DNA from: Escherichia phage vB_EcoM_ESCO45
Reading direction: 5' to 3' (one strand)
Sequence record: OM386661.1
Length of the DNA: 64,000 nt
Both the position numbers and the translations under genes were made by a program. The notes under the pieces are model-generated. The model had not been told where the DNA came from. It worked only from the letters and a program-made list of their open reading frames with translations, and ran no database searches. The stretch's first letter is position 1. Each line of letters begins with the position of its first letter. Of the stretch, positions 11-13,640 are shown one piece after another.

Positions 11-7958
<7,948 letters not shown>

Positions 7959-7960
7959 TA

Positions 7961-9109
7961 ATGGCAGTAGGTGAAATTCAAATTAGTGCCTTGCCTCAAG
8001 CAGCCTTACCGATTGACCTTAGTGATATCTTCCATCTTAAACAGGGTATCGAGGATAAGAGATGTACTCTTGAGCAATTACTTGCTCCACACTCAAGCCT
8101 AAGAAATAACCCTCATGGTGTTACTAAGACACAAATTGGTTTAGATAACGTTATTAATGCTCTCCAGTTAGTTGCTGAAAATAACTTATCAGACATTGTT
8201 AGTGTAGCTGAGGCAAGAGCAAATCTACAGATTATGTCTTCAGAAGAGGTTAATAATCTTATTCAACAGCATATTGATGATAAGAGTAACCCACACAACA
8301 CCACTAAGGCACAGGTTGGGTTAAGCAATGTTCAGAACTGGGTGACATCTAACCTTTATAATGAGGATGCAGATAAGTATGCTACAGCAAGAGCAGTAAA
8401 TAACTTGTACAAGGCTGTTCAGGCTTCTTATCCAGTAGGTACTATCCATCTCTCTATGAATCCTGCAAACCCTTCTACATATTTAATTTGTGGAGGTACT
8501 TGGGAGTTAGTTTCAAGAGGAAGAGCACTTGTAGGTTATGATAGTGCTTCTAGGCCAGTTGGTTCAACGTTTGGTTCGCAGACTACTGCACTGACAGTTA
8601 ACAACATTCCTGCACATACTCACTCAGTATACGTCACTGGTGGTGGTCACACACACGGTGCAACGGCATCTATCAGTGCTTTTGACTACGGTACTAAAGG
8701 GACTACAACGTTTGACTATGGAACAAAGACTGTATCTACTTATGACTATGGTAACAGAACAACCAGTGCTGCTGGTTTAACACAAACAACATTCATTAAT
8801 CGTGGTTATGCTGATGGTGGTTGGAGAGGTTTATCAGTTGAGGGGGCAAGCTATGACCCAAGAGCTACGCTGACAACAGCTAACAACCACACTCACTCTG
8901 TAGCAATTGGTGCGCATAATCACACAGTTGAGATTGGTGCTCACAGTCATTCTGTTGCAATTGGCTCCCACAACCACTCAGCAACAGTAACAGTAACCGG
9001 AGCAGGTGAGCATTCGCACTCTGGCACAACTGGCACAACTGGTTCTGGTCAAGCATTTAGCGTTGAACAGCCATCCTTCGTATTGTATGTATGGCAGAGA
9101 ACAGCTTAA
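7961..9109 (+). CDS. tail fibre protein with C-terminal His-x-His repeat tip
   Basis: 382 aa; C-terminal region contains repeated HTHS / AHNHT / AHSHS / SHNHS motifs and FDYGTK repeats, as in metal-binding receptor tips of T4 gp37-type fibres. Confidence 0.6.
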   Translation: MAVGEIQISALPQAALPIDLSDIFHLKQGIEDKRCTLEQLLAPHSSLRNNPHGVTKTQIGLDNVINALQLVAENNLSDIVSVAEARANLQIMSSEEVNNLIQQHIDDKSNPHNTTKAQVGLSNVQNWVTSNLYNEDADKYATARAVNNLYKAVQASYPVGTIHLSMNPANPSTYLICGGTWELVSRGRALVGYDSASRPVGSTFGSQTTALTVNNIPAHTHSVYVTGGGHTHGATASISAFDYGTKGTTTFDYGTKTVSTYDYGNRTTSAAGLTQTTFINRGYADGGWRGLSVEGASYDPRATLTTANNHTHSVAIGAHNHTVEIGAHSHSVAIGSHNHSATVTVTGAGEHSHSGTTGTTGSGQAFSVEQPSFVLYVWQRTA

Positions 9110-9117
9110 TTTCTTTA

Positions 9118-9140
9118 CAGGGGCTGTATAGCCCCTTTTA
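9118..9140 (+). terminator. rho-independent terminator between tail-fibre genes
   Basis: GGGGCT-gtat-AGCCCC followed by TTTTA. Confidence 0.5.
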
Positions 9141-9155
9141 AGAGGAAAATTTATA

Positions 9156-11510
9156 ATGGCAGATTACAAGTTGAGTGAATTAAACTCAATTGATACAATT
9201 CGTTCAGACGACCTTCTTCATGTCAGAGTTAAAAAGAGACCTGAAATGCTGGGTGATGAAGACCGTCGAATGACCTATCAAGACTTCTTAGCATCTTTTA
9301 AACTTGAAAGATTTGTTCAGATTGCTGGTAGCACTATGACGGGTGACTTAGGGATTGTTAAGTTACTTTATGGTGGTAAGGCAGTATTTGACCCAACAGG
9401 CTCTTCTGAGATTACTATTGGGGATGTTTTAAAGACTTTTAAAATTAACGCAAATGGTCTTAAACTAACTATTGCAGATGCTTCAAGGTCGGCAACTGTT
9501 TATCATACTTTGAATAAACCAAGTCCTAATGAACTTGGGATGAGAACTAATGAAGAAAATGATGCAAGATATGCAAGGCTTGCTGTAACAAACACATTCT
9601 CTGGGACTCAAAATATTCTCTCTGACAATGAAGCCCTTATTTTTAAGAATACCACACAAGGGATGCCACTCTATATTCGTGGTCAAGATGCAGATGGCAC
9701 TAACAGATGGTATCTAGGTAATGATAATAGAAACACAGACAACCTTGTTTTAAAAAACGTTAAATCTGGTGCATACGTAGCGATTTTAGCTAACCTAATC
9801 TCTGTGAATAAATCAATTCAAATCACTGGCCAAGTTCAACCTTCGGACTTCTCTAACTTAGATGCTAGATACTTCACTCAGACAGTAGCTAATCAGAGAT
9901 TTGCACAGTTAACTGCTGATAATACTTTTAGTGGCTCTAACACTTTCAACCAACTAAATGTTTTCAAAAAAGATGGTGAAGTAATTAGGCTACAGAATGC
10001 CAATGCTGCACAACCATTGTACATTAAAGCGATTGATAGCACAGGTGCCAACAGATGGTACATTGGTAATAATAATGGAGGTGATAACGTAGCTCTAGAA
10101 AACTACAAAACTAGTGGCAAAATTACTGTAGGGACAAGTGTTGATATCAATAAAACACTAACTGTAACTGGTCAAGTACAACCTTCCGATTGGGCTAACA
10201 TTGACTCTAGATACATTCCAGCAGCTACTTTGAGCAATCTTGCTAAGCTAAGCGATGTAAACACTTTCAGGTCTGCGCAAGTTATCAACCAGAATGGCTC
10301 ACTGTTACGGCTAAAGAACACCACACAAGATAATGAGCTATACATTGCTGGTCATAATGCTGATAATGCGAGAAGATGGTACATTGGTAGCGGGGAAAGA
10401 GACAACCCAACAAGGCTTATTATCCACAACGACAGAACTTTAACTACGATTTATATGCAAGATGATTTCTTGCTGAATAAAACTGTTAGAATTACTGGTC
10501 AAGTTCAACCATCTGATTGGTCTAACTTAGATGCTAGATACTTCACTCAGGCAGCAGCTAATCAGAGATTCATGGTTGCAGGTTCTACAGGAGAAGCTAC
10601 AGAGCAGAATGCAGATGGTGTGGCATGGAACGCTAAAACAGGCTTATATAATGTAACCTCAACAAATGCTGATTACACAGCACTTGTGTTTCAAATGTAT
10701 CAGGGGGTTAACTCTTCTACTGCCTGTGCGCAATTAAAGTTCCAGTATAAGAACGGTGGGATGTGGTACAGAACATCTGTAGATAGTAAAGGCTTTGAAG
10801 CTAAGTGGTCTAAGATTTACACAGAAGCACAGAAGCCAACACCTTCAGAGCTTGGTGCATACACTAAAGCAGAAACTGACCAGAAAATTGCACAGGCAGT
10901 AAGTGACTCTACAGACCTTAACAAAATCTATCCAGTAGGTATTGTAACGTGGTTTAACAGTAATGTTGACCCTAATACAGCACTGCCTGGTCTAACTTGG
11001 ACGTATCTGAACAACGGTGTTGGTAGAACTATCAGAATTGCAGCAGCAAACGGTTCAGATGTTGCTACAACAGGTGGTTCAGATTCTGTTACGTTAGCAG
11101 TTGGAAACTTACCTTCACACACTCATAGTTTCTCTGCGACTACCTCATCGTTTGACTACGGAACAAAAAACACTAACACGACTGGTGCTCACACCCACAC
11201 TGTAAGTGGTTCTGCTGCATCTGCTGGTAACCACAACCACGCTATCTCATGGATTGGTCAGAACTCTACACACTATTCTGGTGGTGGTGGTGGTAAAATC
11301 GGTACAGGACCGGGTTACACTGATTCTGCTGGTGCTCACACCCACACAATCTCTGGTACTGCTGCATCAAATGGTAACCATGCTCACAGTGTTGGTATTG
11401 GTGCTCACACCCATACAGTAAGCGGTAACACTGGCGGTACAGGTTCTGGTTCAGCATTTAGTGTTACTAACCAGTTCTATAAGTTAATGGCTTGGGTAAG
11501 AACTGCTTAA
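9156..11510 (+). CDS. long tail fibre protein with three internal ~115-aa repeats and His-x-His tip
   Basis: 784 aa; three copies of ITGQVQPSD(W/F)(S/A)N(L/I)D(A/S)RY...; C-terminal HTHS/AHTHT/NHNHA/NHAHS repeats homologous to tip of 7961-9109 product. Confidence 0.6.
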   Translation: MADYKLSELNSIDTIRSDDLLHVRVKKRPEMLGDEDRRMTYQDFLASFKLERFVQIAGSTMTGDLGIVKLLYGGKAVFDPTGSSEITIGDVLKTFKINANGLKLTIADASRSATVYHTLNKPSPNELGMRTNEENDARYARLAVTNTFSGTQNILSDNEALIFKNTTQGMPLYIRGQDADGTNRWYLGNDNRNTDNLVLKNVKSGAYVAILANLISVNKSIQITGQVQPSDFSNLDARYFTQTVANQRFAQLTADNTFSGSNTFNQLNVFKKDGEVIRLQNANAAQPLYIKAIDSTGANRWYIGNNNGGDNVALENYKTSGKITVGTSVDINKTLTVTGQVQPSDWANIDSRYIPAATLSNLAKLSDVNTFRSAQVINQNGSLLRLKNTTQDNELYIAGHNADNARRWYIGSGERDNPTRLIIHNDRTLTTIYMQDDFLLNKTVRITGQVQPSDWSNLDARYFTQAAANQRFMVAGSTGEATEQNADGVAWNAKTGLYNVTSTNADYTALVFQMYQGVNSSTACAQLKFQYKNGGMWYRTSVDSKGFEAKWSKIYTEAQKPTPSELGAYTKAETDQKIAQAVSDSTDLNKIYPVGIVTWFNSNVDPNTALPGLTWTYLNNGVGRTIRIAAANGSDVATTGGSDSVTLAVGNLPSHTHSFSATTSSFDYGTKNTNTTGAHTHTVSGSAASAGNHNHAISWIGQNSTHYSGGGGGKIGTGPGYTDSAGAHTHTISGTAASNGNHAHSVGIGAHTHTVSGNTGGTGSGSAFSVTNQFYKLMAWVRTA

Positions 11511-11589: not shown

Positions 11590-11784
11590 ATGCCTACAAT
11601 CCTAGCAATTCTCCTAAAAAATCTAGGTAGCTTCTTCTGGAAGCTCATTTTATCCCTTCTAAGTGAATACATGATTGAGAAAGTGTTCTTTAAGCTTGCA
11701 AGATATCTTGCGAGTAAAACAGACACACCTATTGATGATGAGTTCGTAGACAACTTAGAAAAAGCTTTTAAGGGGGAGGAATAA
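11590..11784 (+). CDS. small hydrophobic protein (possible holin-like)
   Basis: 64 aa, hydrophobic N-terminal half, acidic C-terminus; preceded by sigma70-like promoter at 11516-11544 and RBS GAGGTGA. Confidence 0.35.
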   Translation: MPTILAILLKNLGSFFWKLILSLLSEYMIEKVFFKLARYLASKTDTPIDDEFVDNLEKAFKGEE

Positions 11785-12150
11785 ATGAAGTGGCTAGAGG
11801 AAGCTTTTAAAAACAATATTGGTGCAATTGTAGTTGGTATTTTTAGTGTTATCGGAATGTATACCACCATGCAAGTGTCAAGTGGTAAACAAGAGGTGTC
11901 TGTCAAAACAAAGTTACAACAGTTGGATAATTACACAAGTAGTAACTATTCAGCTATTCGTGATTTACAGTCTGACATGAGACTGCTTCAGTTAGGGATG
12001 GAGAACCAGAAAGTTCAGTTAGAGAATGTTAAGGGTGAAAACGCAAAACTTACCAAAACTCTTGATAAATTCTCTGACAGTGTGAATAATCTGGCTCAAT
12101 CAGTATCAGCCCTCCAAGCTATTACTGAGAAGAATACAGAAGAACACTGA
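11785..12150 (+). CDS. membrane-anchored coiled-coil protein (possible lysis/holin-related)
   Basis: 121 aa, one predicted TM segment (IGAIVVGIFSVIGMYTTMQV) then heptad-like region; strong terminator directly downstream. Confidence 0.3.
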   Translation: MKWLEEAFKNNIGAIVVGIFSVIGMYTTMQVSSGKQEVSVKTKLQQLDNYTSSNYSAIRDLQSDMRLLQLGMENQKVQLENVKGENAKLTKTLDKFSDSVNNLAQSVSALQAITEKNTEEH

Positions 12151-12162
12151 AAATAAAATTTT

Positions 12163-12192
12163 AAGGCTCCTTTTTACGGGAGCCTTTTTTGT
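12163..12192. terminator. bidirectional rho-independent terminator between convergent genes
   Basis: GGCTCC-loop-GGAGCC hairpin followed by TTTTTT on + strand and an A/T-rich run on - strand. Confidence 0.65.
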
Positions 12193-12193
12193 T

Positions 12194-13093
12194 TTACTTA
12201 CCTACTGACAAAGGTGCTTCAATCTTTCCTGCATGTTGGTAGTTGTTAATGCCACCAATAAAATCACTTGCAGTAAGGTGTTTTAGGTCACTTAGTGTGT
12301 TAAGCTGTACACCAATCTCAAAAGTAGGTGCATGAAACTCTTCATTGTTCATCAGTTCATAAACCTGTTTCATATGGTTCTGATAAATCTGAGTATCTCC
12401 GAAGACGCCTATCAAATATCGTGGAGTGTATCCAGTCATCTTACAAAGAACTTCCAGAATAAAACCATAAGATGCAATGTTAAATGGAAGTCCTAAAAAG
12501 GTGTCTACAGAACGTTGATACCATTGTAAGTCAACTTCACCTTCGTTAGTGATATAAATCTGAAACAGAACATGACAAGGTGCTAAAGCCATCGAGTTGG
12601 CTGCAATATCTGCTGCATTCCAAGCATTAACAAGCATGTAACGGTCTGTGATATCACCTTTCATCTTCGTTACTAAGGTCTCTAGTTGGTCTACAACACA
12701 ACCATTATGACCTTCGAAGTTTCTCCACTGAACCCCGTAGATTCTACCACCTGCATCTTCTAGCCAGTCTTGTTCAGAAGAATAGTTAGAGCTTAACCAG
12801 CGTTTAAAATCATCTGACCAGATAGTCCAGCGTTCCCCATCATTTTCACCCCAAGTACGATAACGGAGTTCACCAAGCTTATTCTCACCGTTCAGGAACC
12901 ATAAAGCTTCTCCAATAACTTGCCGTGTAAACACCTGTTTAGATGTTAAGAGTGGGAAACCAGTACGCATATCAAAACGAAATTGTGGTGGAGCAAATGC
13001 AGAGATAACGTCTCCAGTTCGTGTAGTACGCAGTTCGCCAACGGATAAAACATGGTTCAGGATATTTTTGTAACTCAAATCAGCTTGTGACAT
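12194..13093 (-). CDS. td: thymidylate synthase (ThyA family)
   Basis: 299 aa; YGVQWR, DQL, ALAPCH (catalytic Cys), WYQRSVDTFLGLPFNIASY, GDTQIYQNH motifs in ThyA order; Asn in FNIASY indicates dUMP substrate. Confidence 0.8.
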   Translation of the reverse strand: MSQADLSYKNILNHVLSVGELRTTRTGDVISAFAPPQFRFDMRTGFPLLTSKQVFTRQVIGEALWFLNGENKLGELRYRTWGENDGERWTIWSDDFKRWLSSNYSSEQDWLEDAGGRIYGVQWRNFEGHNGCVVDQLETLVTKMKGDITDRYMLVNAWNAADIAANSMALAPCHVLFQIYITNEGEVDLQWYQRSVDTFLGLPFNIASYGFILEVLCKMTGYTPRYLIGVFGDTQIYQNHMKQVYELMNNEEFHAPTFEIGVQLNTLSDLKHLTASDFIGGINNYQHAGKIEAPLSVGK

Positions 13094-13094
13094 A

Positions 13095-13640
13095 TCAAAA
13101 GTGTCCTTTTACTTGTGGAACATAAATCTCAAAGGTTGCTTTACCATCATCTGAGGGTCTTGACTGCACCTTTGCAAATACACGGCTATCATACAGTTTA
13201 TCGAAGAAGTTTTCAAAAGGTAAATGCACAGTGGCCTCTTCAGTAACTTTATGGAAAACTGTATGGAAAACTACATCAGCATACGGCAAAGCATCGACAA
13301 GAACACCTGCACCACCAATTACAAAGACGTCTTCATCAATAGAGCTATCAAGATACTTCAAAAATGCTCCAAAGGACTCTTTACTAGCCTTAGCATACAT
13401 TACATCGTCTTTGTCAAAGTCTATCCCAAAATATGGCACAGAGTTTGTTAAGATAAGATTTTCACGTTCTGGTAAAGGCTTACTACCTAGAGTCTTAAAA
13501 GTCTCATTACCCATAACTACCAAGTTGTCTTTAGTGAGTCTCTTAAACTCTTGCATATCTTGCTTATGTCGAGGCCACGGCATACCAGTTGGAGTACCAA
13601 ACTCCCCATTTTCACCACTTGCAAAGATTAATTTAATCAT
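13095..13640 (-). CDS. frd: dihydrofolate reductase
   Basis: 181 aa; N-terminal IKLIFA...GMPW and VVMGNETFKTLG pattern typical of DHFR; adjacent to td as in many phages. Confidence 0.7.
   Translation of the reverse strand: MIKLIFASGENGEFGTPTGMPWPRHKQDMQEFKRLTKDNLVVMGNETFKTLGSKPLPERENLILTNSVPYFGIDFDKDDVMYAKASKESFGAFLKYLDSSIDEDVFVIGGAGVLVDALPYADVVFHTVFHKVTEEATVHLPFENFFDKLYDSRVFAKVQSRPSDDGKATFEIYVPQVKGHF

Follow-up and report, generated by a model that had tools for sequence, protein, structure and literature searches.

The first report of T4 gp37 adhesin-like C-terminal regions in the fibres of a Felix O1-type phage concerned gp74 and gp75 of phage VpaE1 and was made from sequence only (PMC4690856, Viruses 2015). 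The receptor of VpaE1 is a carbohydrate of the lipopolysaccharide (LPS) core, and the phage is specific for the truncated cores of the E. coli B type (PMC4690856); Bas63, like VpaE1, depends on the LPS core. For Bas63 (JohannRWettstein), cryo-electron microscopy (cryo-EM) combined with AlphaFold 3 revealed a collar, a needle and a head on both fibres, with seven and six His-x-His motifs, respectively (PMC12609058, Sci Adv 2025). Its gp26 was placed by cryo-EM as a fibre of 430 Å, its long fibre consists of repeated beta domains parted by helix-and-turn motifs in the manner of the T4 gp34 rod, and its variable parts are the tips and repeat domains 2-5 (PMC12609058). Shigella phage Sf14, which belongs to a different genus (Mooglevirus), has two fibres as well (gp52 and gp53; 391 and 792 amino acids); they are about 430 and 630 Å long and combine Mu-like with T4 gp37-like parts, with no Mu-type chaperone (PMC11821841, Commun Biol 2025). 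Here we analyze the two corresponding fibres of Escherichia phage vB_EcoM_ESCO45 (OM386661.1), whose genes lie side by side in the stretch of 64,000 nucleotides that was analyzed (hereafter the window).

In the tip of T4 gp37, one iron ion per His-x-His motif is bound by three chains, and the seven irons are a requirement for folding; residues H929 and H931 are indispensable (PMC6957217). The subdomain between the two strands of the tip binds LPS and OmpC, the C-terminus packs back at the collar, and the fold of the collar is common to T4 gp10, gp11, gp12 and gp37 (PMC6957217, from which the T4 domain limits used in this work were also taken).

The two fibre genes are adjacent open reading frames (ORFs) on the plus strand, at 7961-9109 (382 amino acids, hereafter the short fibre) and 9156-11510 (784 amino acids, the long fibre). 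The short fibre is the orthologue of Bas63 gp26 (97.4% identity; phrog_2097 tail fibre, E = 1e-126) and the long fibre that of gp27 (74.3% identity; phrog_4277, 1326 bits), and the latter matches the vB_EcoM_ESCO45 tail fibre with 100% identity. Genes gp23 to gp27 of Bas63 correspond one-to-one with genes of the window, the genus, the gene order and the fibre lengths of 382 and 784 amino acids being the same. The nucleotide identity of the window to Escherichia phage vB_EcoM_ESCO56 is 98.5%, and almost all of the 238 phage records that match it are Felix O1-like (Ounavirinae); the phage can be assigned to Felixounavirus, i.e., the Felix O1-like myoviruses.

The best explanation of the data as a whole, to which we give a probability of about 0.88, is that the two genes encode two homotrimeric Felixounavirus fibres that would each sit on the baseplate with a conserved N-terminus and end in a T4 gp37-type tip, the long fibre having a shaft of reshuffled modules. 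This explanation is carried by the homology to the T4 tip, the register of the histidines, the shaft repeats, the location of the variability and the recombination between phages, all of which were observed in the present sequences. Each tip would comprise a collar, a small head and a long needle of six strands, to which every chain would contribute twice, once descending and, after the turn at the head, once ascending. The His-x-His motifs of both strands would point into the trimer axis, where two histidines from each of three chains would form octahedral sites, so that metal ions (iron in the case of T4) would be lined up in a column and staple the needle together. The hypervariable head would touch the host surface, most likely the LPS core. 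The shaft of the long fibre would be built from three gp37_trimer units and one Mu S-like domain, each consisting of a variable beta body and a conserved helix-and-turn linker. Among related phages, bodies and head would come in discrete alleles, and homologous recombination at the invariant sequences of linkers, collar and needle would shuffle them.

An earlier note on this DNA had claimed that both fibres end in homologous, histidine-rich modules similar to the His-x-His needle of T4 gp37-type tips, and both claims were borne out. The shared C-terminal module shows 32% identity over 233 residues with composition adjustment (BLASTP, E = 1e-13) and 34% over 230 residues without it (E = 3.6e-30). 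The short fibre has seven His-x-His motifs (at residues 219, 230, 310, 319, 328, 337 and 351) and the long fibre six (655, 679, 693, 728, 742 and 751), more than in any of 5000 shuffled sequences, where the means were 1.0 and 0.35 and the maxima 6 and 4 for the short and the long fibre, respectively. The crystal structure of the T4 gp37 tip, 2XGF, was matched in phmmer searches by residues 650-763 of the long fibre (E = 8.1e-17) and by residues 146-352 of the short fibre (E = 2.5e-13), the latter also matching the T4 gp10 collar. The likeness extends to the published architecture of Bas63.

The descending strand of the T4 tip carries His-x-His motifs 883, 915 and 929, and its ascending strand motifs 966, 980, 989 and 998. 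Motifs 655/679/693 of the long fibre are in register with 883/915/929, and 728/742/751 with 966/980/989, at spacings of 24/14 and 14/9 compared with 32/14 and 14/9/9 in T4. The long fibre has no equivalent of site 998 and is short of one nine-residue ascending layer and one eight-residue descending DxGTK unit, which makes its needle one layer shorter than that of T4. With seven motifs, the short fibre equals T4 in number but arranges them differently, as two down (219 and 230) and five up (310-351); four to five of the seven are in register with T4, the equivalents of 915 and 929 are missing, and 230 and 319 are extra sites. The extra histidine of the HHxH motif of Bas63 is absent from the long fibre, which reads NHNH at 692-695. 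The FDYGTK repeats that the earlier note ascribed to both fibres are present as two copies plus a degenerate third, YDYGNR, in the short fibre, whereas the long fibre has a single copy.

The motifs are well conserved. All six were kept in 118 of the 120 long-fibre homologues, the consensus of the short-fibre homologues has nine (nine being found in 51 of 70), and most histidine columns are invariant or nearly so among homologues down to about 30-40% identity. Only four motifs were found in the long-fibre tips of wV8 and Sf17; the Sf17 fibres, which have nine and four motifs, are 66.5 and 52.6% identical to the short and long fibre described here. Taken together, a T4 gp37-type His-x-His needle is supported for both fibres, and trimer geometry, metal binding and LPS contact are predicted by analogy with T4, Bas63 and Sf14. 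The collar, needle and C-terminal strand are homologous to those of T4 gp37, and the FDYGTK and IGAHxHxV motifs are common features; as in T4, a variable head is predicted to sit at the hairpin turn. In contrast, the head sequences are unrelated to that of T4, and each fibre is a single protein while that of T4 is made of four. The only other window ORFs with two or three His-x-His motifs encode 91 amino acids at about 36941 on the minus strand (reverse-complement coordinates) and 730 amino acids at about 35675 on the plus strand, and these occurrences may be due to chance.

We then divided both proteins into parts by comparison with their relatives, with T4 and with AlphaFold2 monomer models built from alignments of 45 (long fibre) and 52 (short fibre) sequences. 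The putative baseplate-binding N-terminal part of the short fibre with its helical shaft (residues 1-152; 7961-8416, plus strand, as are all fibre parts) is 88-100% identical across Felixounavirus relatives; its role is taken from Bas63 (PMC12609058), and helices are predicted at 68-106 and 143-156. It is followed by a collar of the gp10/gp12/gp37 type (153-214; 8417-8602), which matches Pfam family PF21939 (Gp10_C; E = 9.5e-18, 65.9 bits with a cut-off of 27) and the T4 gp10 structures 2FKK and 5HX2 and is modelled with a predicted local distance difference test score (pLDDT) of 70-84. The descending needle strand (215-268; 8603-8764) carries three (F/Y)DYG repeats in addition to motifs 219 and 230 and aligns with T4 gp37 from residue 883 onward in 2XGF. 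Motifs 310, 319, 328, 337 and 351 lie on the ascending strand (308-356; 8882-9028), whose IGAHxHxV units are encoded by a 27-nucleotide tandem DNA repeat. The C-terminal strand (357-382; 9029-9109) ends in VWQRTA, aligns with the T4 gp37 C-terminus (ending IVRLA), has a pLDDT of 75-84 and, like its T4 counterpart, is predicted to run back to the collar.

The tip of the long fibre has the same order of parts. Its collar (589-649; 10920-11102) can be aligned by a YPVG motif with the collars of the short fibre and of T4, matches PF21939 with 23-25 bits, and is 97-100% conserved in Felixounavirus relatives and 67% in Sf17 (Mooglevirus). The descending strand (650-697; 11103-11246) holds motifs 655, 679 and 693 and the one FDYGTK, and the stretch at 11331-11510, which matches the PF03335 Phage_fiber repeat, encodes the ascending strand (726-760; motifs 728, 742 and 751) and the conserved C-terminal strand (761-784), which ends in AWVRTA and likewise aligns with the T4 C-terminus.

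Between the two histidine-bearing strands, conservation reaches its minimum in both fibres (short fibre 261-320, long fibre 681-740), where identity drops to 10-30%, while within the genus it remains at 73-100% in the collar, in the proximal part of the needle and in the 25 C-terminal residues. Such a variable segment, bordered by conserved histidine strands and by a conserved C-terminus, is what one would expect if a hairpin needle carries its receptor-binding head at the turn. The alignment with the fibre tips of related phages that had been proposed as a check thus puts the peak of variability where the T4 head domain would lie. We predict the receptor-contacting head to be the hypervariable hairpin turn in the middle of each module, at about residues 269-307 of the short fibre (8765-8881) and about 698-725 of the long fibre (11247-11330). 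The short-fibre head is 10-26% identical to those of relatives with other alleles, compared with 100% within the same allele, and the long-fibre head is 14-32% identical to other alleles. The notion of a shared receptor-binding tip therefore stands as far as the T4-type module is concerned, but the predicted contact is not at the C-terminus, which would return to the collar.

The long fibre starts with a conserved N-terminal region, predicted to bind the baseplate, and a first linker (KPSPNELG...DARY) that together span residues 1-140 (9156-9575); this region is 96-100% identical in Felixounavirus relatives and of one type among 120 homologues. Three tandem stretches matching PF20744 (gp37_trimer; 209.6 bits, E = 5e-63 for the whole protein) follow. 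Unit 1 comprises body 141-222 and linker 1 (223-250, ITGQVQPSDF..DARYF; 9576-9905; E = 3e-11), unit 2 body 251-336 and linker 2 (337-362; 9906-10241; E = 2e-19), and unit 3 body 363-445 and linker 3 (446-472; 10242-10571; E = 3e-13). Each unit alone scores 43.6-69.6 bits with a cut-off of 21.7 (E = 3e-11 to 2e-19), and the units are mutually homologous, with profile-profile probabilities of 99.4-99.9% and pairwise identities of 38-48% over about 100 residues (z = 30-38 relative to shuffled sequences). A BLAST search of the long fibre against itself gave no off-diagonal matches at E = 1e-3, and profile methods and shuffled pairwise alignment were needed to detect the repeats. Their period at the DNA level is 342 and 327 nucleotides.

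The three tandem repeats of about 115 residues proposed in the earlier note are thus real, with unit bounds at about 135-248, 249-362 and 363-472 (109-114 residues), but the ITGQVQPSD motif, which had been taken as the start of a unit, marks its end. In the PF20744 model, positions 1-65 correspond to the beta-rich body and positions 66-95 to the TGQVQPSD..DARYF linker. TGQVQPSD occurs at residues 224, 338 and 447, preceded by I, V and I, respectively, so that the middle copy reads VTGQ. The domain after the third motif is not homologous to the units. It matches the Mu fibre S-like family PF12604 (gp37_C; body 473-551, with linker 4 at 552-588; 10572-10919; E = 3e-20, 67-72.5 bits with a cut-off of 22.5), and in sequence searches residues 471-578 matched residues 323-426 of Mu S (PDB 8JU3, E = 2.2e-17). 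In comparison with Mu S, the matching domain lies mid-shaft here and is followed by a T4-type tip, with no Mu U-type chaperone gene after the fibre. A second type of linker, KP(S/T)P(N/S)ELG, is found after the N-terminal region (113-140) and after the Mu-like domain (552-588, KPTPSELG), the motif of the first linker recurring at 552-579.

For Bas63, five beta-helix domains were counted, while the present sequence has three gp37_trimer units, an N-terminal region unrelated to them and one Mu S-like domain. We tested residues 30-108 as a further repeat and found no homology to the units (profile-profile probability below 3%), so that the fivefold repetition described for Bas63 is structural and escapes detection in sequence. 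Several long fibres of relatives depart from this layout. Those of momo (843 amino acids) and wV8 (848 amino acids) exceed the usual 781-787 amino acids by about 60 and keep the three linker motifs. In Salmonella phage Si3 (2445-4788) the annotation splits the long fibre into ORFs of 453 and 311 amino acids at the expected linker 3, a break that may reflect a frameshift or a sequencing error, and in the Kolesnikvirus Erwinia phage phiEa21-4 (4894-7146) its equivalent is two genes, gp70 and gp71.

To type the modules, 120 long-fibre homologues, 70-100% identical overall, were cut into fifteen segments. The bodies and the head fell into discrete types, 13 for body 1, 16 for body 2, 14 for body 3, 17 for the Mu-like domain and 11 for the head, which are mutually below about 50% identity and form no continuum. 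The conserved segments (N-terminus, collar, C-terminus, needle strands and linkers) mostly have one or two types; linker 1 has a single type, the ascending strand four and linker 3 six. The five modules occur in 79 combinations among the 120 proteins, all ten module pairs violate the four-gamete test, and the modules are only weakly associated with each other (adjusted mutual information 0.17-0.36). In pairwise DNA comparisons, identity changes abruptly at the linkers, as from about 95% to about 45% and back to about 93% relative to Bas63. The long-fibre gene is 85-100% identical to that of ekra except for a block of 52-65% over linker 2 and body 3. Relative to Bas63, identity alternates from 92-97% (N-terminus) to 40-58% (body 1), 90-95% (linker 1) and 47-50% (body 2), and further on amounts to 73-87% (body 3), 32-53% (Mu-like domain) and 92-97% (collar). 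At the protein level the two phages differ by allele in the gp37_C domain and in bodies 1 and 2, where identity is 37-46%.

Of 43 body alleles, 10 are closest to an allele from a different position, and all of these pairs link positions 1 and 3 (71-75% identity), while body 2 alleles are position-specific. Such an exchange fits a direct DNA repeat of 97 nucleotides (86% identity; 9805-9901 and 10474-10570) that corresponds to linkers 1 and 3. The two copies are 669 nucleotides apart and in frame, and could also mediate deletion or duplication of two repeat units.

The Bas63 authors named mutational tolerance, host recognition and a role as defence target as possible explanations of the shaft variability and did not mention recombination (PMC12609058). 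According to the first option, the variability would be plain mutational drift of tolerant beta domains without recombination or selection. The bodies are indeed structurally simple repeats, and the linkers may just be more constrained, but drift fits poorly with discrete types below about 50% identity that assort independently (79 combinations, four-gamete violations in all ten pairs), with modules of 95-100% DNA identity beside neighbours at about 50%, and with alleles that change places between bodies 1 and 3. We consider drift improbable, and the comparisons indicate that the long-fibre modules reassort between phages at invariant linker sequences. Discrete, reassorting old alleles, as opposed to simple drift, point to selection acting on the shaft. 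In an experimental evolution study of a Salmonella Felixounavirus, substitutions arose at residues 497 and 534 of a gp37-like fibre; these would sit in the Mu-like body if the numbering is that of the long fibre, which we regard as a lead. A preprint on Bas63 gene essentiality (PhageMaP) contains nothing on the fibres.

The long-fibre AlphaFold2 model has a mean pLDDT of 48.8, within which the four shaft bodies appear as five- to six-stranded beta domains with a pLDDT of 70-85 and short helices at the linkers (body 1: six strands, pLDDT about 70). Its first-ranking Foldseek match was the Mu fibre 8JU3 (E = 2e-6). The T4 gp34 rod (4UXG/5NXF) was retrieved with a probability of 0.98-0.99 over about 430 columns, but the TM-scores of 0.10-0.18 and the root-mean-square deviation of about 24 Å come from a low-confidence monomer, and the sequence of the long fibre has no match to T4 gp34. 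A further match covered 67 residues of T7 gp17. The Mu, gp34 and gp17 matches agree with the Bas63 and Sf14 papers. The short-fibre model has a mean pLDDT of 62.2, with 75-87 for the collar and proximal needle.

Several observations weigh against the proposed tips. The pLDDT is below 40 in the long-fibre tip and below 50 in the short-fibre head, and a Foldseek search of the Protein Data Bank with the short-fibre model gave only weak gp10 matches and did not retrieve 2XGF. The PF21939 score of the long-fibre collar is under the Pfam cut-off of 27 bits. The short fibre lacks the two distal descending histidine motifs that T4 and most of its short-fibre relatives have kept, and may therefore have a distal needle and a head of different structure. 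Likewise, none of the window ORFs is a homologue of T4 gp38 at E values up to 10 (the search covered the 64 kb of the window, the whole genome being about 82-85 kb in size; gp57A was not searched for), suggesting that folding of the needle may differ from T4. Dependence on gp38 and gp57A is an accessory feature of the T4 system, outside the definition of the fold. As the monomer models are of low confidence at the tips, the predicted needle with inward-facing histidines is based on the homology of the tips to 2XGF and on trimer models published for Bas63, which were fitted to cryo-EM density.

The gp10 matches raise the question of whether the 382-residue protein is a T4 gp10-like structural protein of the baseplate that anchors the fibres rather than a receptor-binding fibre. 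Gp10_C is its sole above-threshold Pfam match, the best Foldseek matches of its monomer model are T4 and KP1 gp10 chains, and in the relative H112 it is annotated as a 'baseplate wedge subunit and tail pin'. However, the gp10-like part is confined to the collar (153-214), whose fold gp10 shares with gp11, gp12 and gp37, the match of residues 146-352 to the gp37 needle extends well past it, the hypervariable distal segment tracks the isolation host, and the 97%-identical Bas63 protein is a 430 Å fibre by cryo-EM (PMC12609058). A gp10-like role of the whole protein is therefore highly unlikely.

The identity of 34% between the two tips also bears on the domain exchange suggested in the earlier note. 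A tip recently copied from one gene into the other within the lineage, by gene conversion or domain exchange, could account for short DNA matches between the two genes (22-58 nucleotides, 72-91% identity) at conserved motifs, but these are limited to the codons of invariant motifs. Moreover, the long-fibre tip scores higher with T4 gp37 (105 bits, 44% identity over 144 residues) than with the short-fibre tip (98 bits), and the two tips differ in needle length and histidine layout (three motifs down and three up compared with two and five). Since the tips are only 34% identical and that of the long fibre is at least as close to T4 gp37, there is no sign of a recent exchange between the two genes; we rejected this candidate, which has very little chance of being right, and the tips appear to be old relatives, not recent copies. 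Exchange did take place between phages, as the 79 module combinations show. As the head sequences are unrelated, two receptor specificities for the short and the long fibre are plausible. Finally, that the His-x-His richness is a matter of chance or of low-complexity composition with no role in metal binding is the least credible alternative, for although Gly, Ser, Thr and His abound in the region and BLAST scores drop upon composition adjustment, the motif counts exceed those of all shuffles, the histidines persist in distant homologues and align with the iron ligands of 2XGF, and replacing the equivalent T4 histidines with alanine abolishes function (PMC6957217).

To compare the distribution of the two heads, we searched phage records with the head alleles of the short fibre (window 8723-8920) and the long fibre (11214-11363). 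The short-fibre allele was present in 45 records, i.e., 43 Felixounavirus and two distant Hafnia phages, and the long-fibre allele in 41, all of which were among the 45 when the accession lists were compared. Both heads thus occur together in 41 of the 43 Felixounavirus records with the short-fibre allele, the exceptions being adrianh and mistaenkt. Independent alleles would be expected to share about 8 of about 230 related records, a statistic that ignores shared ancestry and isolation bias. Nearly all records with these alleles were isolated on K-12, DH5-alpha or C strains (rough, K-12-type); the specificity of VpaE1 for B-type truncated cores implies that it presumably carries other head alleles. 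That the heads co-occur despite free reshuffling of the DNA between them suggests that both may be matched to the same host surface, which is a lead rather than a result.

A more far-reaching possibility, tentative and rather doubtful at present, is that the shaft is more than a spacer and forms, together with the head, a combinatorial array of cassettes (four bodies and the head), in which each body would have its own lateral glycan contact or serve as a defence target and both fibres would have to match the same host surface. The roles of the bodies would then be the reason why phages reassort the cassettes at the linkers and even move alleles between positions 1 and 3. If so, the near-complete co-occurrence of the heads would mean that both fibres must fit the same surface for infection to occur.

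Given the accounts of VpaE1 in 2015 and of Sf14 and Bas63 in 2025, the tip architecture described here is correct but was already known. Our additions are modest and consist of the module alleles that reassort at linkers and of the association of the two head alleles. The recombination pattern addresses the question of the Bas63 authors as to why the shaft repeats vary so much. The annotation can be transferred residue by residue, specifying which six or seven histidine pairs should hold metal and where the heads lie. The linkers provide defined, naturally validated junctions for module swaps, which may be of practical use for host-range engineering of Felix O1-type phages in diagnostics and biocontrol of Salmonella and E. 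coli.

Upstream of the fibre genes, the window encodes a Baseplate_J wedge protein, a 285-residue wedge protein and a protein of 100 amino acids (7656-7958, plus strand; phrog_4141, E = 2e-61). By gene order (synteny with bas63_0025) and length, the latter is the counterpart of Bas63 gp25, which forms the platform of the long fibre and is said to be homologous to T4 gp9 (PMC12609058); a role as long-fibre platform is therefore putative and carried over from Bas63. Between the two fibre genes, we found a GC-rich, terminator-like hairpin (GGGGCT-GTAT-AGCCCC; 9120-9139, plus strand) followed by TTTT and a ribosome-binding site. A terminator scan did not flag this hairpin, as its T-run is below the threshold of the tool; in wV8 and AYO145A a rho-independent terminator is annotated at the same position. 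The hairpin may attenuate read-through into the long-fibre gene.

Directly 3' of the long fibre are two small ORFs, at 11590-11784 (64 amino acids) and 11785-12150 (121 amino acids), for membrane-type proteins with hydrophobic N-terminal segments and with PHROG matches only to phrog_402 and phrog_4038, both of unknown function; the second is annotated as a holin in some relatives. This is the slot in which T4, lambda and Mu have a tail-fibre chaperone, and it contains no chaperone gene here. Further downstream, genes for a thymidylate synthase (299 amino acids) and a dihydrofolate reductase (181 amino acids) lie on the minus strand at 12194-13640, convergent with the fibre module, and the same arrangement is found downstream of the fibres in Bas63 and wV8. 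A bidirectional, terminator-like hairpin is located at 12163-12186.

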